Shown: positions 5,400-38,831 of the stretch, piece by piece
Layout: each line of letters begins with the position of its first letter
How positions within the stretch are numbered: position 1 is the first letter of the stretch
DNA from: an uncultured Klebsiella sp.
GTDB taxonomy: Bacteria; Myxococcota_A; UBA796; SXON01
Assembly (NCBI GenBank): GCA_964359125.1
Contig: CAYHRZ010000001.1
Location: 1 to 49,105, forward strand
DNA length: 49,105 bases
Direction of reading: 5' to 3'
Notes under the pieces: model-generated
Database searches by the model: none
The model's input: only the letters and a program-made list of their open reading frames with translations
What the model was told of the DNA's origin: nothing
Program-made: the position numbers and the translations under genes

Positions 5400-6482
5400 G
5401 TGCCCGGCAACAGCCTTGGTCGTCGCTTCCGGGTCACCACCTTCGGCGAGAGCCACGGCCCCGCCCTCGGCGTGGTGATCGACGGCGTGCCGCCGGGGAT
5501 CGTGCTGGACCTGGGCCACGTGGCCGCCGACCTCGCCCGGCGCCGCCCTGGCCAGTCCGCGATCACCAGCCCACGCAGGGAGGCCGACACCTTCGAGGTG
5601 CTCAGCGGCGTGTTCGAGGGCAAGACGCTGGGTACGCCACTGGCGATGCTGTTTCGCAACACCGACGTAAAATCAGCCGACTACGATAATCTTCGTGATA
5701 CGTATCGACCGTCTCACGCCGACTACACCTACGACGCGCGGTTCGGCCTGCGCGACCACCGCGGCGGCGGGCGTGCTTCAGCCCGGGAAACCGTGGGCCG
5801 GGTGGCGGCCGGCGCGGTGGCCCGACAGGTATTGCTGGCCCAGGGCATCGAGGTGGTGGCCTGGGTGGCCGAGGTGGCCGGTATCGGCTCGACGGTCGAC
5901 GACACCACGGTGGGCCGCCAGGACGTCGACGCCAACGACGTGCGCTGCCCCGACGTCGCGGCCGCCCCCGCCATCGACGCCGCCATCCGCGCCGCCCGCG
6001 CCGAGGGCGACACCCTGGGCGGCATCGTGCGCTGCACATGCCGAGGCGTGCCGCCCGGCCTCGGTAGCCCCGTGTTCGACAAGTTGGAAGCCGACCTCGC
6101 CAAGGCCATGTTGTCGATCCCCGCCGCCAAGGGCTTCGAGTCGGGTAGTGGCTACGGCGGCACGACGATGCGTGGTTCCGCCCACAACGACCCCTTCGTC
6201 CCCGGGCCTCGCGGCCCCGTCACCACCACCAACCACTCCGGCGGCATCCAGGGGGGCATCAGCAACGGCATGCCGGTGAACTTCTCGGTGGCGTTCAAGC
6301 CGGTGGCCACCATCTTCTCGCCCCAGAGCACGGTCAACGACCGCGGCGAGGCAGTGACGCTGAAACCCCGGGGCCGGCACGACCCCTGCGTCTTGCCGCG
6401 GGCGGTGCCCATCGTCGAGGCCATGGCGTGCCTCGTCCTGGTCGACCACTGGCTGGAACGGGTATGGCGCCCGGCCGGCTGA
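5400..6482 (+). CDS. aroC: Chorismate synthase
   Basis: N-terminus [31 protein letters not shown], plus RPSHADYTY and [11 protein letters not shown], are canonical AroC motifs. Length is 360 aa. Confidence 0.95.
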
Positions 6483-6569: not shown

Positions 6570-7982
6570 GTGACCCATTTTTCCCAGTTCGGTATCGACT
6601 CGGCCCTCTGCCAGCGCGTGCTGGCGGCCGCTCTCTCCCGCGGCGCCGACGACGCGGACCTGTACTTCGAGCACGCCGGCAGCACCGCCGTGGCGCTGAG
6701 CGACAACAAGGTCAACCGCGCCAGCACCCACGTGGACCTCGGCGTGGGCGTGCGTGTCGTGGTCGGCGACCAAGTCGGCTACGCCTACACCGAGGAGTTG
6801 ACCGAAACATCCATGATACAAGCCGCGCGTATCGCCGCCGAGATCGCCGCGGGCAACCGCCAACATGTTCCGGTATCGATCAACGAACTGCGGCACGCCG
6901 ATCGCTACCGGGCGGTGCTGCCCTGGGAGGGCGTCGAACTCTCCACCCGCGTGAACCTCGTCCGCGACTGGGAGCAGCGCGCCTTCGCCAAGGACCCGCG
7001 GGTGCTCAAGGTGGAGACGTCTCTGGCCGACAGCTTCAAGCACGTCCTCGTGGTGCGGCCCGACGGCCGCGCCGTGTACGACTACCAGCCCATGACCCGG
7101 GGCTGGGTGGTGGTCACCGCGAAAGACGGGGAGCGCCGCGAGTCGAGCAACGCGAACCTCGCCCAGCGGGCGGGCCTGGAGTTCTACACCCCCGAGCGCA
7201 CCGAGCGCATGTGCGACAAGGCGGTCAACGACACGATCGCGCTCTTCGACGCTGCCAAGGCGCCAGCCGGCGAGATGACGGTCGTGCTCGGCGCCGGCTC
7301 CTCTGGCATCCTCTTGCACGAGGCGATCGGGCACGGCCTGGAGGCCGACTTCAACCGCAAGGGCATCAGCATCTTCGCCGACCGGGTGGGCACCCGAGTC
7401 GCGCCGCCCGGCGTCACGGTGGTCGACGACGGGACGATTCCCTTCGCGCGCGGGACGATCAATACCGACGACGAGGGCAACGCGGCCGAGCGCACGGTGC
7501 TGGTCGACGACGGCATCCTGCGCGGCTTCCTCCACGACGAGATCAGCGCCCGGCACTACGGCGTTCGCCCCACCGGCTCGGGACGCCGGGAGAGCTTCCG
7601 GCACGTGGTCCTGCCCCGGATGCGCTCCACCTACATGGAGTCGGGCAACTTCGCCCCCGAGGAGATCATCGCCTCGGTACAGAACGGCATCTACTGCGCC
7701 GACTTCGCAAACGGCCAGGTGCAGATCGGCGCGGGCGACTTCGCCTTCTACGTGCGCCGGGGCTTCCTCATCGAGGGCGGCAAGCTCACCCGCCCGATCA
7801 AGGACGTGAACCTCATCGGCAACGGCCCGCAGGTGCTCGCCACCGTCGAGATGGTCGGCAACGACCTGCAGATCGACGAGGGCGGGTGGACATGTGGGAA
7901 AGACGGGCAGTCGGTGCCGGTGAGCCAGGGTATGCCCACGGTGAAGGTGTCCAAACTCTCGGTGGGCGGGGTGTCGGCATGA
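6570..7982 (+). CDS. tldD: Metalloprotease TldD
   Basis: HEAIGHGLEADF motif and full-length similarity to TldD. I chose GTG 6570, which is preceded by GGAG. The ORF is open from GTG 6504, so the start is uncertain. Confidence 0.9.
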   Translation: MTHFSQFGIDSALCQRVLAAALSRGADDADLYFEHAGSTAVALSDNKVNRASTHVDLGVGVRVVVGDQVGYAYTEELTETSMIQAARIAAEIAAGNRQHVPVSINELRHADRYRAVLPWEGVELSTRVNLVRDWEQRAFAKDPRVLKVETSLADSFKHVLVVRPDGRAVYDYQPMTRGWVVVTAKDGERRESSNANLAQRAGLEFYTPERTERMCDKAVNDTIALFDAAKAPAGEMTVVLGAGSSGILLHEAIGHGLEADFNRKGISIFADRVGTRVAPPGVTVVDDGTIPFARGTINTDDEGNAAERTVLVDDGILRGFLHDEISARHYGVRPTGSGRRESFRHVVLPRMRSTYMESGNFAPEEIIASVQNGIYCADFANGQVQIGAGDFAFYVRRGFLIEGGKLTRPIKDVNLIGNGPQVLATVEMVGNDLQIDEGGWTCGKDGQSVPVSQGMPTVKVSKLSVGGVSA

Positions 7983-9319: not shown

Positions 9320-10228
9320 CTACTTCCCGCGCGGTCGGCTGCCCTCGGGCAACTCCGCCGCCAGGCGGCGGTGGGCCTCGTCGAGCGCGCCGGACTTGCC
9401 CGAGAAGTCGGCGGGCTTGAAGGGCTGTCCGAACGCCAGGCGCACCGGCCCGCGGAACATCCGCGGGGCGTCGATCGGGAACAGGGCGTCGCCGCCGGTC
9501 TGCGCCAGCGGCAAGACCGAGAGGCCGTCGACGGCCAGGTAGCGAGCCGCCGCCCGCAGGAACGGCTGGAGTCGACCGTCGCGGCTCCGCGTGCCCTCCG
9601 GGTACAGCAGCACGATGTAGCCCTCGTCCATCAGGCGGGTGCACGCCTGGAGCGTCTCGACCGCCACCGCGGCCAGCTCCCTGGCGCTCATGCTGTCTTG
9701 TTCGCTGGCCACCGCCGACGACTGCGCCGTCTTGCGCGTGTTCAGCGCGATCGAGGCCATCCGGCGCCAGGGCTCGGTGTAGACCTTCGGCCCCGCCACG
9801 GCCACCAGTCGGTCGGCCAGCGAGGAAAGGCCCGCCCGCGCCAGCACGCCGTCGGTGATCTGGGTGTCGGTGTAGCTGAGGTGGTTGCAGACGATCAGCC
9901 GTCGACCGCCGCGCTCGTCGAAACTCAGGAGCCGGTCCACGCCGCGCAACTCCTGCGGCTCCATCAGCGCCGACATGTACACGCGGGTCAGGCGCCGCGC
10001 CAGGGGGTCGGCCCGGAACAGTTTCCAGCCCGATCCCGCCGCCGCGTAGGCGGCCAGCAGGGCGGCGACCTCGTCGTCGCCGGCCACGTCGACGATCCTT
10101 TGCAAGTCGCGATGCAGCCGGTCGCACACGTATTGCTCGGCTTGAAGGTGGCTTGCGACCCAGGCGGCGAGGCCAGCCCGGACCTGCTCCGGCGACAGCG
10201 CCGCGAGCGCTTCGATGGACAGCTCCAT
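9320..10228 (-). CDS. 1-acyl-sn-glycerol-3-phosphate acyltransferase family (PlsC-like)
   Basis: HX4D motif (CNHLSYTD) and PEGTRS motif. The start is taken at ATG 10228 (MELSIEAL); the longer ORF to 10399 looks like junk. Confidence 0.8.
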   Translation of the reverse strand: MELSIEALAALSPEQVRAGLAAWVASHLQAEQYVCDRLHRDLQRIVDVAGDDEVAALLAAYAAAGSGWKLFRADPLARRLTRVYMSALMEPQELRGVDRLLSFDERGGRRLIVCNHLSYTDTQITDGVLARAGLSSLADRLVAVAGPKVYTEPWRRMASIALNTRKTAQSSAVASEQDSMSARELAAVAVETLQACTRLMDEGYIVLLYPEGTRSRDGRLQPFLRAAARYLAVDGLSVLPLAQTGGDALFPIDAPRMFRGPVRLAFGQPFKPADFSGKSGALDEAHRRLAAELPEGSRPRGK

Positions 10229-12573: not shown

Positions 12574-13557
12574 CTACTCCTCGCCCGTCTGCAACACCCG
12601 CGGCAGCCGGGAGCCCGTCTCGCCACCGAGCTCCCGTGGGTCGCCAGGCACCGTTTCCACCAGCTTCGCCGCCTTGGCGCGGTCCATGTCGAGGATGGTG
12701 ACCACGAGATCCGAGGTACCGGCGGGCGTCTCCGTCACCCACACCACGTGCTCGCCGCGCCAGTACCAGGCCTTGAGCGCGCTGTCCCAGCGGGGGGCGC
12801 CCAGGACCTCCTTGATCCGCTCGCGCAGCCTGAAACTGCCGGTGTCGCCCCGCACCAGGAAGCGCGCCGCGTAGAGCCCGTTGTTGCCGTCGAAACTCCA
12901 CGCCGCCGCGCCGGCCACCCCCATCAGGACCGCGTCGCTGTCGAAGGCGCGACCGTAGGTGGTGCTGTTGCGGTACTGCGCCGACATCTTGCGGTCGTCG
13001 AGGCGATCGAAGCTGTCGCCAAAGTTGACGTTGGCCAACCCGTGGTGCCGGTCCACCAGGGGCGGCACCGGTCCGGGGTCGGCCTCGAAACGGAAGGTGT
13101 AGGTGGCCTCGGGTTCCTGGCGGGTGGGATGCAACAGCGCCGGGAACTCCCGCTTCAGCAGTCCGTCCACCACGCAGCCGGCCAGCGCCTCGTGGGCGCC
13201 GGCGGCGGGGCGGGCCACGGTGAACTTCGCCGAGCGATTCACCCGCAGCCTCACCGCCGCTTCCGTGCCCGGCGCCACCCCCGCCGCGACCGCGCAGGCC
13301 CCGACCACCACGCTCTCGCGCGCCAGCAGGGCGTCGAGGGCGGCCATGTCGGCCCGGCGGTCCACCAGGTTGTCGACCTCGCGCTCCCAGGCCTCGAGCG
13401 CGGCCTCGGTGGCCTGGCGCGGCATCTCCGGGTCCTCGGTGGTCTCGGCCTCCACCTGCATCCGCCAGAGCTGCACCGGTGCGCCGTCGCCGAGAACCGT
13501 CACCTTCAGGGGCTCGGCGTTCTTGGCGAGCGCCACGCCCAGCGCGAGGATCAGCAT
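12574..13557 (-). CDS. Hypothetical secreted protein
   Basis: 327-aa ORF with a hydrophobic N-terminus (MLILALGVALA). Its start lies 1 nt after the stop of the upstream hydroxylase gene. GC3 is good and I recognise no family. Confidence 0.6.
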   Translation of the reverse strand: MLILALGVALAKNAEPLKVTVLGDGAPVQLWRMQVEAETTEDPEMPRQATEAALEAWEREVDNLVDRRADMAALDALLARESVVVGACAVAAGVAPGTEAAVRLRVNRSAKFTVARPAAGAHEALAGCVVDGLLKREFPALLHPTRQEPEATYTFRFEADPGPVPPLVDRHHGLANVNFGDSFDRLDDRKMSAQYRNSTTYGRAFDSDAVLMGVAGAAAWSFDGNNGLYAARFLVRGDTGSFRLRERIKEVLGAPRWDSALKAWYWRGEHVVWVTETPAGTSDLVVTILDMDRAKAAKLVETVPGDPRELGGETGSRLPRVLQTGEE

Positions 13558-13558
13558 C

Positions 13559-14155
13559 TCAGTAGGTGCGGAACACGTGGTCCCACAACGTGGTGCTCAC
13601 CCCGTACTTCCGACCGTCCTTGTTGTGGTGATGGTTCATGTGGTGGGCCCGCAGGCGCTTGAACCAGGTGCCCGTCACCTTGCCGTGGTGCACGTAGTAG
13701 TGGGTCATGTCGTAGGCGATGTAGCCCGCGACCTTGCCGGCGAAGAACGGGAACACCAAGCTGCCCATGAGCAACCACCACATCCCGAAGAACAGGCCGC
13801 CCAGCGCGAGCGCCGCCGCCGGGGGCATCACCAGCCGGAGGTGGTCGTCGACGTAGTCGTGGTGGACGCCGTGCATCAGGAAGTGGAAACGCGGCCCCCA
13901 GCTCGTCTTGGGCACCCAGTGAAACAGCTCCCGGTGGAGCCAGTACTCCGAGAAGGTCCAGACGAAGAGGCCCGCGGCGAAAAGCGCCAGGCTGGTGCCC
14001 AGACCCAGGCCCACCCCCGCGAGGCCGTAGGCAAAACAAGCCACGACGATCGGCACGAAAACCGCGGGGACCAGGTACCACGGCACCCGGCTGAAGCCGT
14101 CGATGAACTTGTTCTCGAACATCGGGGGCGAGCGGTCGGTGGCGGGGAAGAACAT
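13559..14155 (-). CDS. Fatty acid hydroxylase superfamily protein (FA2H/sterol-desaturase-like di-iron membrane enzyme)
   Basis: Histidine boxes HRELFH, HGVHH and HHMNHH, with about 4 TM segments. Confidence 0.8.
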   Translation of the reverse strand: MFFPATDRSPPMFENKFIDGFSRVPWYLVPAVFVPIVVACFAYGLAGVGLGLGTSLALFAAGLFVWTFSEYWLHRELFHWVPKTSWGPRFHFLMHGVHHDYVDDHLRLVMPPAAALALGGLFFGMWWLLMGSLVFPFFAGKVAGYIAYDMTHYYVHHGKVTGTWFKRLRAHHMNHHHNKDGRKYGVSTTLWDHVFRTY

Positions 14156-14212
14156 CGGGAGCGCATATCCAGAGGCGGGACGATGTCAACTATGTAGTAT
14201 TTTCCCCAGCAG

Positions 14213-15493
14213 TTACCCGCGGCGACGCCGGGCGGCGAGGAGCGCCGTCGCGGCGGCGATCATCCCCGGAGCGGCCGCGTTGTCGCAACCGCAGCCGGTG
14301 CCCGCGCTCTGCAAGCCGGGGTCGTCGCCCCCGGGCGAGTCGCCATCGAGGTCGCCGTCGTCGTCCCAGCCGTCCTCCTCGGTGGGCGTGTCGCGACCGT
14401 CGCAGAAGCTCTCCACGCAGGAGTAGTTCTGCTCGTAGTCGTCGGCGTAGGCGGTCACCATCGGCTCGTAGAGGCCCGAGCCGTAGAGCACGAGGTCCGT
14501 CTCGGCCTGCTCCGGCGTGTAGCGCATGTGCAGCCGCGTGAGGTGGTGGTTGTCGGCGTTGCCCCGGAAGCCCAGCGCCTCCACGTCTTCCTCGGTGATG
14601 TACACCCCCGAGCAGGGGTTGCAGTCGTAGAAGCCGCCGGCAAACTCCACCGTCCAGCCGGCGTCGCCCACCGCCGTCCACGCCTTCGTGTAGAGGTCGT
14701 CGTAGAACACCGAGAAGTCGTCGGCGTTGGGATCCCCCCAGATACACTTGTCGGGCACCTCGAACTCTGGGTAGTTCGAGATCGCCGCGCGGGCGGGGTC
14801 GTTGGCGCCTTCGAGCTCGGTGAAGGCGTAGATGATCATGTCTTGTTCGCCGGGCGAGTTCAGCGTGGCCAGGCGCAGGGGGATGGCGAAGAGCTCGCTG
14901 TCGTACGACACTTGCAGCGGCGAGAGCGGCACCCCGGTCGCGACCGCAGCCTCCTCCGCCACCTTGGCCGCGAGGAAGTAGCTCCCAGCCTCGATGTACT
15001 CGGCCAGGCGCTCGTCGGCGCCGGTGGGCAGGTAGTAGGCGTTGGCGTCGAGCCAGGCCCCGAGGCTCGACGACTCCTCGGCGGAGAGGATCACCACCTG
15101 GTACTCGCCCACGAGGTACTCGGCCTCCACCGTCACCCCGGTGTCGCCCGCGTCGGCGGTGTCGGACTGGGGGCCGCCGTCCTCGTAGGCCACGCCCGAG
15201 TCGGTGTTCGGGCAACCGGCGTCGTTCACATGCCGAGGGGCGCTGTACCCGTCCAAGCGGGCGAAGATCGACGGGTCCAGGGTCGTGACCTCGTCCTGGG
15301 CCAGCACCTCGGGCACCGGCATCACCAGCGCGAAGGCCTGGGGGTCGCCCACCGGGTTGATCGACACCGAGAACGTGGTGCGGTTGTCCTGGCGGACGAT
15401 GGCCACTTGCGCCGTGTCGAACGACAAGCTCGACGGCGTGCCGGTGGCGACGGTGGGACAGGGCAAGGCGAGCGAGACGGCGAGAAGGAGCAC
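14213..15493 (-). CDS. Secreted DUF2330-like protein with MYXO-CTERM-like sorting tail
   Basis: GTG 15493 is preceded by GGAGGG. It has a signal peptide, an acidic C-terminal linker, and the tail GTGCGCDNAAAPGMIAAATALLAARRRRG (Cys motif + TM + Arg cluster). Confidence 0.75.
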   Translation of the reverse strand: MLLLAVSLALPCPTVATGTPSSLSFDTAQVAIVRQDNRTTFSVSINPVGDPQAFALVMPVPEVLAQDEVTTLDPSIFARLDGYSAPRHVNDAGCPNTDSGVAYEDGGPQSDTADAGDTGVTVEAEYLVGEYQVVILSAEESSSLGAWLDANAYYLPTGADERLAEYIEAGSYFLAAKVAEEAAVATGVPLSPLQVSYDSELFAIPLRLATLNSPGEQDMIIYAFTELEGANDPARAAISNYPEFEVPDKCIWGDPNADDFSVFYDDLYTKAWTAVGDAGWTVEFAGGFYDCNPCSGVYITEEDVEALGFRGNADNHHLTRLHMRYTPEQAETDLVLYGSGLYEPMVTAYADDYEQNYSCVESFCDGRDTPTEEDGWDDDGDLDGDSPGGDDPGLQSAGTGCGCDNAAAPGMIAAATALLAARRRRG

Positions 15494-15612
15494 GAGGCCC
15501 TCCGGGGGACAGGCCCCTACTATGCCTCCGGCGAGCCCTGGTCGCCAGCCTCCCCCGCCCGGCCCGCGATCCGCTCCCCGAGCTTCACGGGTTGGCCGGG
15601 GGTGGTGGTTCG
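15487..15612. repeat. Direct repeat copy A (left boundary of the inserted cassette)
   Basis: 40 nt are identical to 18638-18677, followed by ~85 nt at ~80% identity to 18678-18763. Confidence 0.85.
15520..15606 (-). pseudogene. Displaced remnant of the psd 3' end (28 codons + stop)
   Basis: Translates to TTPGQPVKLGERIAGRAGEAGDQGSPEA*, compared with the genuine psd C-terminus ATPGQPVKLGERIAVRVGEAGGAPPEGA*. No upstream psd body is present. Confidence 0.7.
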
Positions 15613-15620
15613 TCTGGACG

Positions 15621-15863
15621 CTAGTCGGACGGACATTTCTCGAGGTCGTAGTACTCTTCGGTCAGGCAGTCGCAGGCCACGTTGACCGGTCGCCAGCGGC
15701 AAGCGCCGTCCACGTTCGAACACCCACAGTAGAACGTCGTTCCACAACCGTCGCAGCGGTAGTCGTACTCGCTGCTGGCGTCGCAGATCGCCAACGGCGC
15801 GAGCCGCCAGCAGGGTGCGTCGTCGCCGCAGGCCAAGAGCGAGGTGGCGACGGTCCAGACCAT
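15621..15863 (-). CDS. Small Cys-rich lipoprotein, paralog 1 (80 aa)
   Basis: MVWTVATSLLAC lipobox, then about 10 Cys in a pattern shared with the neighbouring paralog (Y-x-CDGCG-x-T...C-x-C...C-x-W...CDC-x-T-E/D-E). GC3 is lower than in neighbouring genes. Confidence 0.65.
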   Translation of the reverse strand: MVWTVATSLLACGDDAPCWRLAPLAICDASSEYDYRCDGCGTTFYCGCSNVDGACRWRPVNVACDCLTEEYYDLEKCPSD

Positions 15864-15938
15864 CAGGACAGCTCGCGGCCGACGCAGGCGTTGACTCTCA
15901 ACGTGAACCACCTCACGACCCGCAGTTCGGGCACGCAC

Positions 15939-16217
15939 TCAGTCGCCCTCCCCAAAGTCGTTACCGTCCCAGTAGCACTCGTCGCGAGACTCGTCTAGGC
16001 GGTGTTCATCTGTCACGCAGTCGCAGGTGATGTCGGACTTTAACCAATCGCACTCGATGCCTGGTCGGTGACAAGAACACAGCGACGTGCGCCCGCAGCC
16101 GTCGCACTGGTAGGTCTCGTGATTACTGTAGTCGCAGTCGAAGCTCGGCAAGATCGGCTCGCACTCCGCGTCGCCGTCGCAGGCCAGCAACGAAACGCAG
16201 AGCAGACAGACCGTCAC
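15939..16217 (-). CDS. Small Cys-rich lipoprotein, paralog 2 (92 aa)
   Basis: The GTG start overlaps the upstream stop (GTGA). VTVCLLCVSLLAC lipobox. The Cys pattern is conserved with paralog 1. Confidence 0.65.
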   Translation of the reverse strand: MTVCLLCVSLLACDGDAECEPILPSFDCDYSNHETYQCDGCGRTSLCSCHRPGIECDWLKSDITCDCVTDEHRLDESRDECYWDGNDFGEGD

Positions 16218-18130
16218 GCATCCTCTCCACAGCCCAGCGCCTCGGCGGTGTCCGGGCTCCAGCACGGCAACGCCGCGACCGTGGCCACCTGGCCGGGTGT
16301 CCCGTCCACCACTGTGTCGCAGTAGAGTGCGTGGTAGCGCAGCGTGCCGCTGTCGGTACTGCAACTCGCACAGTTGTCCAGGAACGCCGCGTCGGGGTTG
16401 TCGAAGTCGCCGCTACCTCGGCGCTCGTACGTGTACAGCGGAATGCCGAGATGCGCCCGGACGCGACACTTCCAAGCGTTCGACGCTGACTCGAAACAAC
16501 AGTGGTGGCCATGGGGGCAGTGGCCCCCTCCCAGGTACACGTGGCCGATCTCGTGGATCAGGGTCTCGCCATGGTCGGCCAGCATACACAGGACATACCG
16601 CGACAAGCGCTGCGCCGTGAGCAAGTACTCGGCGGCCCCGGCGAGGTCGCCCTCGTCGCCCAGGGCGTAGGCGTAGTCGAGCGCCAGCCGCGCCAGGTGC
16701 ATGATGCGATCCGCCACCAGGCCATGGTAGGCAAGCTGGTTGGGCGGGAACACCACGTTCCAGCTCCCGCCGAACGCGATCCCACCACACCCTGACTTGG
16801 GCGGCTGACAATCCTCGCCCGACTCCCGGCCGGTGTAGCAACCCTCGCTGCCCACCCAGCGCAGGTCCCAGTCGTCCCAGGTCTTCCCGTCGCACACTCC
16901 CGGGTTGTACCCCTCGTGGCACGTGTCAGCTAGCTTCCACGAGTGGCAGGGCTCGTTCACGGGGCCGTAGCCGCGCTGCGCGCTGGAGTAGTGGATGGCG
17001 AGGGAGCAAGACTCCCGGCGGCCATCGCCGAAGTACGCCTCGTGCCGCTCGGCACTCTTGCCCTCCAGCATCGCCTCGAGGAACTCCGGGAACTTCCGGC
17101 ACTGCGCGAAGGCGTCGTTGGTGTAGGGGTTCACGTCCTTGGTGTTGGCGTACTGCACGTAGGTGAGCACGAGCTGGCAGGCGTAGACGTGGAACCGGAA
17201 GGGCGCGCCCCAGCCGTCGTTCCAGAACTGGTAGGCGTGCTCCCACTCCCAGTCGTCGCGGTGCAGGTTGTAGCAGCCGAGCAGCTTGCGGAACACGTCG
17301 GGGTCGCCGCGGGACTCGGAGCGAAACGCGGCCCAGAGCACGTCGAGGGTCTGGTGGACCGAGTGGACCTTGCCGTGGGCCGCGTCGCGGCCCTGCCGGT
17401 ACACGTGCGTCCAGTCGAGCAGCCACGCCTCGTACCAGTCGAAGGGGATGGTGAAGGACTGGTCCCGGTAGCTGAACGATGCCACCTCCTCCCGGGCCGT
17501 GAGGCCAGAGGGCGGTGGCGCCCCGGAGAGCGGCGCCGGCGCCGGTGCCTGCCCCCTTGGCCCAGGCGCACCGCCGGGCGGACCAGCCTTCCGCGGGACG
17601 ACGAGCCCGACCACGTCGGCGAACGACGCCGCGGCCCGCGATCGAGAGGCCCGCGGGGCGAGCAACTGGGAACAGCCCCGGCCGCCAGCCTTCGGCAGTA
17701 GCCGCTCCCCCCTCGGCGACGTGGTCGCTGGCGGGCGGAGCAGCGACGCCGCCCGGGCCAGCACCTGCTCGGTGTGCGACGCGGCGAACGGGGTCGCGTT
17801 GCCCGAGGCGTCGATGCCGACGACGAGCCCCGGGAGCAGCCGCGACCGGGGCGAGGGACGGGCTCGCGGCGGGGGCAGCACCCCGGCCGGGTCGATCACG
17901 CCGTCCCCCGTCCACCCCACGCCGCAGTCAGGAGCCCGGGGAGGCGCCAGCTTGCGCGTGCGACGGGCGCGCCCGCGCGTCCCGGGTGGTCGCCCGAGGT
18001 TCACCGGCACGATGCCGGCTTCCCGGGGGTCCGTGGCTGGCAGCCCGGCTGCGCCGCCCGGCGCCACAGCGCCCTGGCCGCAGCCGCAACTACCCCCGCA
18101 GCCGCCCCCGCAGCCGCACCCCGCGCTCAC
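16214..18130 (-). CDS. Large Cys-rich protein with HExxH zinc-metalloprotease-like motif (638 aa), family not recognised
   Basis: GTG 18130 overlaps the stop of the 120-aa gene (GTGA). N-terminus is VSAGCGCGGGCGGSCGCGQG, followed by a ~250-aa Pro/Arg/Gly-rich region. The ~390-aa globular C-terminal part has more than 25 Cys and TLIHEIGHVYLGGGHCPHGHHCC. GC3 is consistently high in this frame. Confidence 0.7.
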   Translation of the reverse strand: MSAGCGCGGGCGGSCGCGQGAVAPGGAAGLPATDPREAGIVPVNLGRPPGTRGRARRTRKLAPPRAPDCGVGWTGDGVIDPAGVLPPPRARPSPRSRLLPGLVVGIDASGNATPFAASHTEQVLARAASLLRPPATTSPRGERLLPKAGGRGCSQLLAPRASRSRAAASFADVVGLVVPRKAGPPGGAPGPRGQAPAPAPLSGAPPPSGLTAREEVASFSYRDQSFTIPFDWYEAWLLDWTHVYRQGRDAAHGKVHSVHQTLDVLWAAFRSESRGDPDVFRKLLGCYNLHRDDWEWEHAYQFWNDGWGAPFRFHVYACQLVLTYVQYANTKDVNPYTNDAFAQCRKFPEFLEAMLEGKSAERHEAYFGDGRRESCSLAIHYSSAQRGYGPVNEPCHSWKLADTCHEGYNPGVCDGKTWDDWDLRWVGSEGCYTGRESGEDCQPPKSGCGGIAFGGSWNVVFPPNQLAYHGLVADRIMHLARLALDYAYALGDEGDLAGAAEYLLTAQRLSRYVLCMLADHGETLIHEIGHVYLGGGHCPHGHHCCFESASNAWKCRVRAHLGIPLYTYERRGSGDFDNPDAAFLDNCASCSTDSGTLRYHALYCDTVVDGTPGQVATVAALPCWSPDTAEALGCGEDA

Positions 18131-18489
18131 TCCTTCCACACCGAGTCGGCCAGCACGACCGGGCTCCCGGTGACCGTGCCGACCGCGACCAGGCGGATGA
18201 AGCGGAGGAAGTTCTCGCACCACATGTGCTTGTTGCCCGCCGCGCTGTTGTCGAGCACCACCTGGAGGTCCGCGCCGCTGGGGTCCTTCGCGTCGATGAA
18301 CGCGTCGTCCTCGTTCACCGCGGCGTGCTGCACGCGCAGGTAGGTGGCGGCCGACGTCCCGTCCTTGAGGCGGCGGAACTGCAACTCCCCTCTCGTGAAG
18401 GCGCCGGCGTCGAGCACGTCTTCCTTCGGGGTCTTGTAGCCGGTGGTGATGACGGTGGGTTCCAGGACTCGATGGTACAACGACGACAT
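18127..18489 (-). CDS. Hypothetical 120-aa soluble protein, first gene of the cassette
   Basis: ATG 18489 is preceded by GGAG. The sequence is non-repetitive (MSSLYHRVLEPTVITTGYKTPKEDVLDAG...HMWCENFLRFIRLVAVGTVTGSPVVLADSVWKE) with no signal peptide. I recognise no family. Confidence 0.65.
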   Translation of the reverse strand: MSSLYHRVLEPTVITTGYKTPKEDVLDAGAFTRGELQFRRLKDGTSAATYLRVQHAAVNEDDAFIDAKDPSGADLQVVLDNSAAGNKHMWCENFLRFIRLVAVGTVTGSPVVLADSVWKE

Positions 18490-18573
18490 GGGAAACTCCA
18501 GTGGACGGGTGAAGCGGTGCGAGGTACCCGAGGGACGGTCCCCCCGGCCACGCACCGGTCACACGGGCTAGCA

Positions 18574-18583
18574 GGGGGGGGGG
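18574..18583. repeat. Homopolymer G10 (C10 on the coding strand) in the cassette leader
   Basis: Read directly. It lies 85 nt upstream of the 120-aa gene start and 6 nt downstream of a TTGACA hexamer (minus strand, 18595-18590). Confidence 0.9.
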
Positions 18584-18637
18584 TCACCTTGTCAATGCAT
18601 CTGCCACATCCGTTACATCTCGTGACAATTCCACCCG

Positions 18638-18763
18638 GGAGCACGAGGCCCTCCGGGGGACAGGCCCCTACTATGCCCCCTCGGGAGGCGCCCCGCCAGC
18701 CTCCCCAACCCGCACCGCGATCCGCTCCCCGAGCTTCACCGGCTGGCCCGGGGTAGCCGTCCA
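18638..18763. repeat. Direct repeat copy B (right boundary of the cassette; overlaps the genuine psd 3' end)
   Basis: See copy A. It contains the psd stop (18671-18673), the 33-nt spacer, and the RBS+GTGCTC that in copy A starts the DUF2330-like gene. Confidence 0.85.
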
Positions 18764-19546
18764 CCGGATGGACCCCGGCGGAAACAGCAGCACCACCGTA
18801 CTCCCCATCTCGAAACGGCCGATCTCCTCGGCCCGCCCCAGCGGGTGGTTCACCTCGCGCTCCACCGTGTCGCGACCGCCGTTGTTGGACACCACGTCGG
18901 AGAACACCACCCGGATCCGTCCCACGCCGAAGGCCCCCACCAGGCACTCGGCCACCTCGCCGAGCTCGGTGTCGAGAAAGGCCGTGAGCCGCTCGTTACG
19001 ACTGAACAAGAACGGGATCTTCCGCGTGGCCGCCGGGAACACTGGCCACAGGGCGCCGGGCACGTACTGGAAGCGAGTGACGGTACCCGCCAGGGGCGTG
19101 TGAACCCGGTGGTAGTCGCGGGGCGACAGGTAGATCACCGCGTAGTGGCCTCCCTCGTAGCCCTCGCGCCCCGCCAGCAGTTCCCGCGCCGAGAAGTGTT
19201 GGGTGTCCGACTGGGGGATACGGTCGTCGACCACCGTGCCGATGGCGTACACCTTGCCGTCGCAAGGCGACACGATGGCGCCGGGGTCGCCGTCCACCGG
19301 CCGCACGCCGACCCGGAGCGGGCGGGTGAAGAAGGCGACCAGCGAGTCGTAGTCCTGGACCGAGCCCTCGCACTCGGAGAGGTCGACGTTGTACTTCCAG
19401 CAGTACGAGCGGATCACCCAGCCGAGGAGCGGCCGCGGCAGCCGGATTCTCGCCAGCGCCCCCATCCACCCCGACACCGCGTGCTTGGGCACCACCGACA
19501 AGGCCGAGATGATGAGCGCATCTTTCATCGCCGCGGCGGATAACAC
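18671..19546 (-). CDS. psd: Phosphatidylserine decarboxylase proenzyme
   Basis: FFTRPL, SPCDG, YLSPRDYHRVH and the FEMGST self-cleavage site. The start is either GTG 19546 or ATG 19528. Confidence 0.9.
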   Translation of the reverse strand: MLSAAAMKDALIISALSVVPKHAVSGWMGALARIRLPRPLLGWVIRSYCWKYNVDLSECEGSVQDYDSLVAFFTRPLRVGVRPVDGDPGAIVSPCDGKVYAIGTVVDDRIPQSDTQHFSARELLAGREGYEGGHYAVIYLSPRDYHRVHTPLAGTVTRFQYVPGALWPVFPAATRKIPFLFSRNERLTAFLDTELGEVAECLVGAFGVGRIRVVFSDVVSNNGGRDTVEREVNHPLGRAEEIGRFEMGSTVVLLFPPGSIRWTATPGQPVKLGERIAVRVGEAGGAPPEGA

Positions 19547-20592: not shown

Positions 20593-22998
<2,406 letters not shown>

Positions 22999-36690: not shown

Positions 36691-36763
36691 ACGCACACGG
36701 CCGGACTGGCGCACACCCGCGCCCGCGACGCCGCCACGCGCCGCGCCCGGCTGCCGTTCCTGT

Positions 36764-36778
36764 GACCCACGTGGGTCG
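36764..36778. repeat. CCCACGTGGG-core repeat, copy 4 (14-bp perfect palindrome GACCCACGTGGGTC)
   Basis: Read directly; intergenic. Confidence 0.8.
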
Positions 36779-36845
36779 TGAACTTCGAACCCAACGATGG
36801 GGCGACGGCAGGCCGCCAGCGCGAGGGGACGCCGCTCCCGGCCAA

Positions 36846-36864
36846 GCGCCCCACGTGGGTCGTG
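36846..36864. repeat. CCCACGTGGG-core repeat, copy 5
   Basis: GCGCCCCACGTGGGTCGTG; intergenic. Confidence 0.8.
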
Positions 36865-36959
36865 TGCCCGCTGCCTCACGATGCCCTTGCTCTCGCCCGC
36901 CCGCCGCGGGATCACCTCGCACTCCCTCGCGCCCCGCCCGCCGGATAACAGGCGTCACG

Positions 36960-38831
36960 ATGCTAACCCTCCTCGCGGGCTGCCTCGTCAATACCGCGCT
37001 CTACGAGCGTCGGGTGCAGGAGCTCTCCGACGCCGACCAGGACGGTTTTGTCAACCCCGCCGAGGGCGGCAACGACTGCGACGACGACGACGCTGCGGTG
37101 TACCCCGGCGCCACGGAGGTCCCTTACGACGGGATCGACCAGGACTGCGACGGCAGCGACCTCGACGACGGCGACAACGACGGGATCGAGGCCGAGGCCG
37201 CCGGCGGGACGGACTGCGACGACGACGACGACGACACCTTCCCGGGCGCCACCGACGCCTGCTACGACGGGGTCGACAATGACTGCGGCGGCGACGACGA
37301 CTTCGACTGCGACGGCGACGGCCACCGGGTCGACAGCAGCACTGGCGGCACCGACTGCAACGACGGCGACGCGACGATCTACCCCGGTGCTGTGGATTCA
37401 TGTTACGACGACGTCGACAGCGACTGCGCGGGCGACGACGATTTTGACTGCGACGGCGACGGCTACACCGAGAGCGACGGCGACTGCGACGACGACGACG
37501 CCACCCAGTTCCCCGGGGCCGACGAGGGCTGGGGGGACCTCGGCACCGCCAACGCCTGCGACGGCGCCATCGACGACCCGGTCAGCGCCTCGTTGGCCGA
37601 CGCCGACGTCATCGTCGATCCCCCCGCCGACTACGGCTACTTCGGATCCACCCTCGGCCCCGTGCACGACCTCGACGGCGACGGGATCGACGAGGTGTTC
37701 GTGTCTGCCCCCTACGCCAGCCCCGACGTGCCCTACCAGGGGGCGGCGTTCCTGGTCCGCGGCGCCGATCTCGCGGGCCACCTCACGCTCGACGCGACAC
37801 ACGACCAGTTGCTCGCCCCCGACACCTACAGCTTCCTCACCGCGCACGGCACCGGGGAACTCGAAGGCGTGGGCGGCGAGTTCCTCTTCGTGGCCTCTGG
37901 CGCCGCCGCCGACGGCGCGGGCGTCACCTGGGCCGTCGCGACCGGGAGCATCCTCGACGGGGGCGCGCAGGATCCCGCCAACGTCGCGGTCGCGACGTTC
38001 ACGGGCGCCGACGGTGACTACGCGGGCACCGCCCCTGTCACCGGTCGCGACATCGACGGCGACGGCGTGCACGACCTCCTCCTCGACGCCATCGGCACCG
38101 GCCGCGCGCTCGGTTTCTCGTCCCCCGGCGGCGGCGCGCACGGCGCTGACGACGCCGACTGGGTTTGGACGCCGTCGCCCACCGGCGACTACCTGATCCT
38201 CCGCGTGCCCGGCGATGTTGACGGCGATGGCACCGACGACGTGGGGATCACGCAGGGGCCCGACGCGGGGGACGCGGTGGGCGCGGCCCTGTACCGGGGC
38301 GGCGCGGGGCTCGCGGGAGGGGAGTTTGGGGAGGGGGCTGCGTTCTACCTGCTTGGGTCGCCCACGTTGGAGGCGGTGGCCGACACCGCTGCCGGCTCCG
38401 CCCTCGTTGTCCTGGCGTTTCAGGCATCGTTGTTTGTCGAGCCCCAGGAAGGGGCCACGTACGATCCCCTCGCGGGGGCCGACTACCAGCTCTTCAGGAC
38501 TGCCGACGAGGCCGCCTTCTCCGGTGCGCTGTGGAGCCCCTCGCTCGGAGCGGCGCAGGCGGCTCTCGTGCTCGCGGCCTACGCCCACCCGGAGGGCACG
38601 CAGACGGGCGAGTGCGTCGTGTGGCGCATGGGAGAATTCAGCGTCGACGACTTCTCGACCGACTTGGCGCTGCGCCTACGAGGCGAACGGCCCGGCGACC
38701 GCGCCTGCGCGGCGCTCAGCGTGGCTCCAGATCTCGACGGCGACGGCCGCGGCGAACTAATGGTCGGCGCCCCCCTTGCCGACGGCACGTCGGCGGACTC
38801 GGGTCGGGCCTACATCCAGCTCAACCCGTGA
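36960..38831 (+). CDS. Lipoprotein with MopE-like Cys-rich repeats and FG-GAP repeats (paralog of 20593-22998)
   Basis: ATG 36960, MLTLLAGC lipobox. Repeats are [27 protein letters not shown]-type. C-terminal FG-GAP units (DLDGDG...GAP). Confidence 0.85.

Follow-up and report, generated by a model that had tools for sequence, protein, structure and literature searches.

How did four genes come to lie at the 3' end of psd, with a second, body-less copy of the psd tail on their far side? The question is raised by a 49-kb contig of an uncultured Myxococcota-like groundwater bacterium (the window, analysed at its full length). In the window, psd, which encodes phosphatidylserine decarboxylase, four unannotated genes (A to D, the cassette), a DUF2330 gene and a fatty-acid hydroxylase gene (FAH) are all on the minus strand, and the cassette is bracketed by two direct repeats. 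A first reading, made from the letters alone (the sequence-only reading), had proposed an att-flanked island inserted between psd and the DUF2330 gene. Our analysis confirms the insertion. It is best explained, with about an even chance of being right, by incoming DNA that carried its own copy of the junction and recombined with the resident one through a 43-bp block. The architecture of the insert is of an already known kind, while its cargo genes are new and unannotated.

Insertion into the psd–DUF2330 junction

A comparison with the three nearest genomes, SXON01000121 (L009), VGRQ01000428 (L010) and VGRE01000046 (L011), with psd amino acid identities of 76–81%, reveals the same gene order in each, rsmB<-|psd->DUF2330->FAH. 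About 24–52 nt separate the psd stop from the DUF2330 start, and homologues of A, B, C and D are absent from these genomes. Because the three closest genomes keep psd and the DUF2330 gene contiguous and free of the cassette, the two genes were formerly adjacent, and insertion into their junction is confirmed. That it postdates the split of this lineage from its nearest sequenced relatives is the best explanation. No conspecific genome is present in the genome collection searched.

Repeats of this kind could also cause a chimeric join of two loci during assembly, and the coverage of the contigs is low (cov 2–4 in the contig names). However, the occupied site is reproduced in four independent contigs from Hainich groundwater metagenomes (L008, L098, L099 and L100; records ERZ1292635, ERZ1292638 and ERZ1292640, the last with two contigs), which agree with each other and with the NCBI contig at an identity of at least 99.9%. 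In particular L098, an independent assembly from another sample, matches window positions 13544–18986 at 5442 of 5443 positions and spans both repeats unbroken into FAH. With the occupied state in four independent contigs, the arrangement is therefore not a misassembly, and an assembly artefact is exceedingly improbable.

The repeat finder reports the direct repeats as two blocks, 15487–15529/18638–18680 (98% identity) and 15543–15603/18694–18754 (89%), both spaced by 3151 bp. Aligned without gaps, the two copies are identical at 98 of 117 positions (83.8%), against a background of 0.29 ± 0.055 computed elsewhere in the window at the same spacing, and the BLASTN self-match has an E-value of 2e-29. 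Even with up to 3 mismatches tolerated, a 40-mer within the repeats has only its two sites in the window, and it turns up in 0 of 100 shuffles. The identity over 117 positions against 29% background and the absence of the 40-mer from shuffles exclude a chance repeat. The low-coordinate edge of the repeat is sharp, with the identity ending at 15486/18637; the psd-side edge is fuzzy, and identity decays there across 15603–15611, about 10 nt.

These data bear out most of what the sequence-only reading had said of the junction. The former neighbourhood of psd and the DUF2330 gene agrees with the empty site in the three relatives, the misassembly that would have undone the reading is ruled out by the Hainich contigs, and the junction is indeed duplicated on both sides of a unique segment of 3034 bp with four same-strand genes. 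The identical 40-mer is at both sites where it was first seen and nowhere else in the window, and the translations of a true psd end in copy B and a body-less tail in copy A are both correct. Two measurements needed correction. The direct repeats, first estimated at about 125 bp, are 117 bp long, and the spacer from the psd stop to the GTG is 26 nt instead of 33 nt, the larger figure having included GTGCTCC.

The GTG in copy A is the real start of the DUF2330 gene, and the same GTG is duplicated in copy B. The psd tail in copy A has the same length and stop position as that in copy B, contains no frameshift and ends ...GRAGEAGDQGSPEA. Residues conserved among psd orthologues (G..V..G.RI) are intact in both tails, and the three differences within PGQPVKLGERIA are every one synonymous. 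The six codons preceding the shared Ala-stop differ nearly all between the tails, with length, frame and stop kept.

Table 1. Features of the psd–DUF2330 region in the window.
Feature	Position	Strand	Remarks
psd, phosphatidylserine decarboxylase	18671..19528	-	PF02666, E = 3e-55; intact, full length
Repeat copy B (attL-like)	18638..18754	-	genuine last 28 psd codons and stop, 26-nt spacer, GTGCTCC; followed by the cassette leader
Unique inserted segment, 3034 bp	15604..18637	-	leader and genes A, B, C, D
Cassette leader, non-coding	18490..18637	-	third-position G+C (hand count) of 0.63 when read in frame with the duplicated GTG
Gene A, 120 aa	18127..18489	-	ATG with GGAG upstream; no signal peptide; predicted jellyroll beta-sandwich
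Gene B, 638 aa	16214..18130	-	GTG start overlaps the TGA stop of A; N-terminus MSAGCGCGGGCGGSCGCG
Gene C, 92 aa	15939..16217	-	GTG overlaps the stop of B; alternative start 16265; small Cys-rich predicted lipoprotein, lipobox LLAC|D
Gene D, 80 aa	15621..15863	-	alternative starts 15911, 15938; paralogue of C, same Cys pattern and lipobox
Repeat copy A (attR-like)	15487..15603	-	body-less psd tail, identical spacer, true ribosome-binding site and GTG of the DUF2330 gene
psd tail without gene body, in copy A	15520-15603	-	in frame, has stop
43-bp block	15487..15529	.	42/43 identical to 18638-18680; candidate crossover or gene-conversion core
DUF2330 gene, former downstream neighbour of psd	14213..15493	-	PF10092, E = 1e-46
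Fatty-acid hydroxylase gene (FAH)	13559-14155	-	

The mosaic repeat and its origin

The identity of the two repeat copies is distributed as a mosaic. In the ungapped alignment 42 of 43 positions match, followed by 2 of 13 (15530–15542) and 54 of 61. At 51 conserved coding sites the psd tails of copies A and B differ at 8 (16%), and between copy B and L010, the nearest genus, there are 12 differences (24%); the divergence between the two tails is about two-thirds of that between genera. With a divergence of 16%, about 7 differences are expected in the 43-nt block and 1 is seen (Poisson P about 0.008). The 26-nt spacer inside this block is not alignable between genera, and the block has no unusual predicted secondary structure (z = 0.48). 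The near-identity of the block beside the diverged tails thus indicates that the two parts of the repeat differ in history. Judged by these alignments, the tails either are old or derive from separate lineages, and the 43-bp block is young or kept identical by recombination. The mosaic would then record two histories, one of old tails and one of a young core.

We propose that the four-gene operon fragment entered the psd–DUF2330 junction on incoming DNA, probably circular, which would have brought a diverged copy of the same junction with it. Reciprocal recombination between the resident and the carried junction, with the crossover in the 43-bp identical block, would yield on the psd side (copy B) the psd body, its own tail, the core and the cassette, and on the DUF2330 side (copy A) the cassette, the fossil of the carried-along tail, the core and the DUF2330 gene. 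Both the crossover site and the circular intermediate are what we infer here. No recombinase is encoded nearby; either an integrase of the site-specific kind would have worked in trans, or RecA would have carried out a Campbell-type event. If the two 43-bp blocks recombined with each other, the empty site would be regained precisely and a circle released. The cassette now lies within the psd–DUF2330–FAH transcription unit, on the same strand; no sigma-70-like promoter or intrinsic terminator is predicted around it. The mosaic identity of 42/43, 2/13 and 54/61 fits recombination through the 43-bp core.

Several results weigh against this proposal. No tRNA gene is detected by ARAGORN in the 49-kb contig. 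The cassette and the 30 largest other open reading frames (ORFs) of the contig give no recombinase or transposase Pfam match, and these 30 ORFs are metabolic and surface-protein genes of an ordinary kind. Of 77 related psd loci, 0 show an insertion flanked by a duplicated psd tail, and flanking repeats are absent from 8 other loci with the same gene module. A scan of the metagenome collection with the 29-mer core gave just the same Hainich contig, and the viral collection gave nothing. Among contigs with an identical psd or DUF2330 protein there is no empty-site allele or circle junction. No psd above 81% amino acid identity exists among 5.8e9 proteins, and no donor lineage is identified because the nearest other psd is only 81% identical. 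Finally, polarisation of the tail differences with three outgroups assigns 6 to copy A and 2 to copy B, a non-significant imbalance.

The sequence-only reading, which had seen the architecture of an attL/attR island and no integrase, transposase or tRNA, is borne out on the missing genes by the ARAGORN and Pfam scans. Its island holds in part: the mosaic fits recombination through a core, and this is the best fit, while no cognate recombinase, empty-site conspecific or circle junction is found. Since repeats flanking an insert are seen at 0 of 77 psd loci and at 0 of 8 module loci, our data support one single recombinational insertion event and do not support a dedicated psd-targeting element family.

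The junction could also have been duplicated in situ. Illegitimate joining of foreign DNA, for example by non-homologous end joining or by a template switch between two sister chromosomes with breaks 117 bp apart, would duplicate it, the tail in copy A would then decay as a pseudogene, and the 43-bp block would be held by gene conversion or by a cis function in both copies. Such an origin is consistent with the lack of a recombinase in the ORFs scanned, with the lack of other psd-targeted islands in the 77 related loci and with the occurrence of the module elsewhere without repeats. The 6 of 8 polarisable differences on copy A point the same way, and the scrambled 13-nt block could wall off gene conversion to the 43-mer. 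However, 11 changed positions of 13 beside an identity of 42/43 are incompatible with uniform point decay, and copy A retains frame, length, stop and all conserved residues. A target duplication of 117 bp is much longer than known transposition or repair duplications. Furthermore, selection is unlikely to keep the 33 non-coding nucleotides of copy B unchanged because the spacer is not conserved between genera. We thus regard duplication in situ as doubtful, with a minor though real share of the probability.

Another polarity is offered by the icd gene of Escherichia coli, in which e14 and phage 21 reside with the 3' end of the gene duplicated at both insert ends. The icd copies differ by conservative changes, the gene stays intact, and a single gene is regained when the copies recombine (PMC13626634). 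Applied to psd, this would place the crossover at the repeat edge nearest psd; the element would have given psd its current tail (copy B) and the spacer, and copy A would be the displaced native tail, comparable to the icdC pseudogene beside prophage e14. Both tails do resemble functional psd ends. Yet the psd-proximal edge has the lowest identity and a fuzzy boundary, and the longest identical run at that end is 25 nt versus 40–43 nt at the other. Copy B, not copy A, agrees with the outgroups at most informative sites. In addition, an element-borne spacer identical to the fast-evolving spacer of the host would be left unexplained, and no integrase or phage genes are found. This polarity therefore has only a slim chance of being correct.

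Comparison with known elements

An insertion through the 43-bp block can be compared with CIMEs, integrase-less cis-mobilizable elements that are known, for example, at the fda 3' end of Streptococcus thermophilus (PMC6323972). The likeness lies in a short island, attL/attR-type direct repeats, a target at the 3' end of a protein gene, and no own integration or transfer genes found. Att-like direct repeats are present at a defined site, namely the 117-bp repeats with their 43-bp near-identical block as candidate att. No integrase, excisionase or conjugation genes are found among A–D, which are without Pfam, NCBIfam or PHROG matches, or among the 30 other ORFs. A cognate integrative and conjugative element (ICE) or integrative and mobilizable element (IME) at the same target is not found in the 77 psd loci or in the viral or metagenome collections. 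The locus differs from a CIME in this respect, with no cognate ICE, IME or integrase known and no ICE remnant, and also in its long mosaic repeats and in its host, an uncultured groundwater bacterium of Myxococcota-like type.

The likeness to e14 is that psd, like icd, is a housekeeping gene kept intact with a second copy of its tail beyond the insert; the duplicated target 3' end and the intact gene are both found here. However, e14 is a 15-kb prophage with its own integrase and SOS-induced excision, whereas the insert in psd measures 3 kb and has no recombinase. The best-conserved block here is downstream of the stop codon, not inside the gene. The locus offers a clean natural case of an integrase-less island of very small size at the 3' end of a protein-coding gene.

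Other element types were tried and rejected. An integrase-borne island or prophage of the e14/icd type is not supported, as a recombinase gene adjoining the att site is not found. A transposon or insertion sequence is contradicted by a duplication of 117 bp, too long compared with 2–15 bp, by the lack of a transposase and by the lack of terminal inverted repeats: none of the 25 longest among the 56 inverted-repeat pairs joins the cassette ends. A tRNA-linked island is ruled out since the window has no tRNA gene. An RNA element in or around the cassette finds no Rfam match at E<=1, and the fold of the 43-mer is ordinary.

The psd 3' flank of more distant relatives was also inspected. In L013–L019 psd is directly followed by FAH, and in L012 by a different gene. 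Because L009–L011, L012 and L013–L019 differ here, the flank is variable in the clade, and the DUF2330 gene itself was therefore earlier gained or lost at the same junction. A local tandem duplication of 68 nt at a psd 3' end (88% identity, 47-nt shift) is observed in the distant relative L035 at about 7800–7914, where psd is 40% identical.

Cassette genes and the module elsewhere

The four cassette genes lie on one strand, with start-stop overlaps of the form GTGA between A and B and between B and C. The third-position G+C (GC3) is 0.95 for A, 0.90 for the C-terminal domain of B, 0.80 for C and 0.86 for D, and 0.916 ± 0.023 for host genes. The lower GC3 that the sequence-only reading had noticed in the small genes is confirmed for C and, weakly, for D. 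Neither A nor the C-terminal domain of B shows it. A foreign codon usage of the cassette was rejected, as these two are host-like and only C is clearly low; in composition the cassette is thus near to its host.

The low third-position G+C of the leader indicates that it is not coding. The duplicated ribosome-binding site and GTG of copy B open an out-of-frame ORF of 110 codons (18315–18644, minus strand) that extends past the gene A start. With a GC3 of about 0.63 in its non-overlapping part, this ORF is unlikely to be a gene, and ribosomes loading at the duplicated GTG could influence translation of gene A. In the leader, ten consecutive G on the plus strand (18574–18583; C10 in the coding direction) form the window's single homopolymer of 9 nt or longer, and they lie 94 nt upstream of gene A. 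In L001, the closest other cassette, A11 and C14 are located at 9536–9562 (-100/-87 of gene A), and they are the only runs of at least 8 nt in its 18.9-kb locus. Such a tract is absent upstream of more distant A homologues. The homopolymer tract may represent a phase-variable promoter of the slipped-strand type.

Protein A is modelled as a jellyroll (predicted local distance difference test, pLDDT, 93). Its fold matches small uncharacterised phage proteins in BFVD (template modelling score, TM, 0.64–0.69), with weaker PDB matches to jellyrolls of capsid cement, decoration and Ena proteins (TM about 0.45–0.55). No homologues of A are found in 2.9 million viral contigs and no match in PHROG, and a phage origin was rejected, the resemblance being one of fold only. 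The A family has 27 members (cluster representatives). A large unannotated protein directly follows A in 9 of 9 contexts with downstream DNA (the window, L001, L007, L089, L092, L095, L096, L101 and L104). It belongs to the HExxH family of B in L092, L096 and L104 and is a different large protein in L089 and L095. In L095 (5520–9671) it has 1383 residues, with about two dozen scattered RGxGELIxP-like motifs in the N-terminal 650 and no Pfam match in its large C-terminal region.

Full-length members of the B family that were read share one layout: CxC...CxC after the start, a linker, and a Cys-rich domain of about 420 aa (423 aa here). The linker of about 215 aa is of low complexity and presumably disordered, with conserved CGxG and LLxPG / G.LLRP motifs; its CGxG we take to resemble the PRCGxPD cysteine switch of matrix metalloproteinases. 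The motif [LIVM][LIVM]xP occurs 61 times in B-family linkers versus 18.5 ± 3.8 in shuffles. The C-terminal domain carries HEIGH...HC...CC in the form HEIGHVYLGGGHCx5CC. Among 30 family members E527, H530 and H537 are invariant and H526 is conserved in at least 90%, so that a conserved HExxH and a putative third zinc ligand, as in zincins, are both found. A word-based search found only three B homologues. With an exhaustive profile search, 198 cluster representatives of the C-terminal domain were recovered (E<=1e-3), which gives a family of about 200 among 1.8 billion proteins. The word-based search found so few partly because public gene calls truncate the N-termini of B. In the window they start B at 18067, with 617 instead of 638 aa and the Cys cluster cut off; in L092 (6079–6681) the B-family protein is called at 434 aa, with the Cys cluster and much of the linker lost. 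Comparison across the family supports the GTG at 18130 as the start of B.

Archaemetzincins have the consensus HEXXHXXGXXHCX4C, in fuller form HEXXHXXGXXHCX4CXMX17CXXC (PMC3427221), and protein B resembles them (MEROPS M54) in its HExxH...G..HC followed by conserved cysteines. It differs in an extra residue before the third His (HExxHxxxGxxH), in other Cys spacing, in its 423-aa domain, its N-terminal CxC...CxC cluster and its disordered linker. Peptidase_M54 matches 8 of the 30 family members weakly (best E = 0.0032, below the cut-off), and all M54 matches are below threshold. An assignment of B as an archaemetzincin was rejected on its motif HEIGHVYLGGGHCPHGHHCC and different spacing, the window protein being without a Pfam match and PF07998 below threshold.

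C and D are paralogues with a shared Cys pattern and the lipobox LLAC|D; in L104 and L101 a larger leucine-rich repeat (LRR) lipoprotein occupies their position. The A–B–lipoprotein module is found in unrelated neighbourhoods in L001, L007, L092, L096 and L104 and is therefore regarded as horizontally mobile cargo, which moves between genomes of uncultured Myxococcota-like bacteria. The most distant cassette read, in L007 (1664–6957), is A–B–C with a B of 34% identity. On one side it has a SNIPE/T5orf172 nuclease gene and on the other a Phage_int_SAM_4 fragment with a resolvase gene, a context that is mobile or defence-island-like. A known anti-phage defence system was considered for the cassette and rejected, as A–D have no PADLOC match at E<=1.

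Tentatively, and with the chances somewhat against it, we read the cargo as a latent secreted or envelope metallopeptidase with a leader-binding partner and lipoprotein inhibitors or immunity proteins. B would be a zymogen-like zinc metallopeptidase, A a conserved partner with short linear motifs of the B linker as its possible targets, and C and D lipoproteins facing the periplasm as inhibitors or immunity proteins. Speaking against this assignment, A–D are without a match in Pfam, NCBIfam, PHROG or PADLOC, B could be modelled only at an unusable quality (pLDDT 34, from a 3-sequence alignment), and what we infer about function comes from motifs and gene order. PDB sequence searches with A and B gave nothing meaningful. 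The module resembles polymorphic toxin/immunity systems in having a small conserved partner gene, then a large protein with a locus-variable C-terminal domain, then one or two small lipoprotein genes, with a patchy distribution in variable regions. It differs in that a trafficking domain of a recognised type is lacking, no Rhs, PAAR, LXG, MAFB or type VI secretion system genes lie nearby and no toxin or immunity family is matched.

A wider and unlikely possibility is an undescribed protein system. A would recognise repeated hydrophobic-hydrophobic-x-Pro motifs, the N-terminal CxC...CxC cluster or both in the disordered leaders of interchangeable enzymes, and would package, export or activate such cargoes, including the metallopeptidase and the unrelated domains of L089 and L095. 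The lipoproteins would protect the producing cell, the poly-C tract would make expression phase-variable, and the repeat-flanked copy would be a natural, recombinase-independent shuttle of such a module. If the module is a toxin/immunity or delivery system, it would extend the knowledge of competition between bacteria in groundwater and lake communities. The locus flags a module of a jellyroll, a metallopeptidase-like protein with an N-terminal Cys cluster and Cys-rich lipoproteins outside the models of Pfam, NCBIfam, PHROG and PADLOC.

Two further observations concern the hosts. Genes for large MopE (Cu-binding motif)/FG-GAP surface proteins and of the xanthine/CO-dehydrogenase type are found both in the window (20593–22998 and 36762–38831) and in L001 (621–2576), which suggests related hosts with the cassette at different loci. 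The DUF2330 protein ends ...GTGCGCDNAAAPGMIAAATALLAARRRRG (window 14213–14300), which resembles a MYXO-CTERM sorting tail in its Cys motif, hydrophobic helix and cluster of Arg residues, and it has a weak NCBIfam match to the C-terminus of a myxosortase-dependent protein. Its tail looks like that of a surface-anchored product of a Myxococcota-type host.

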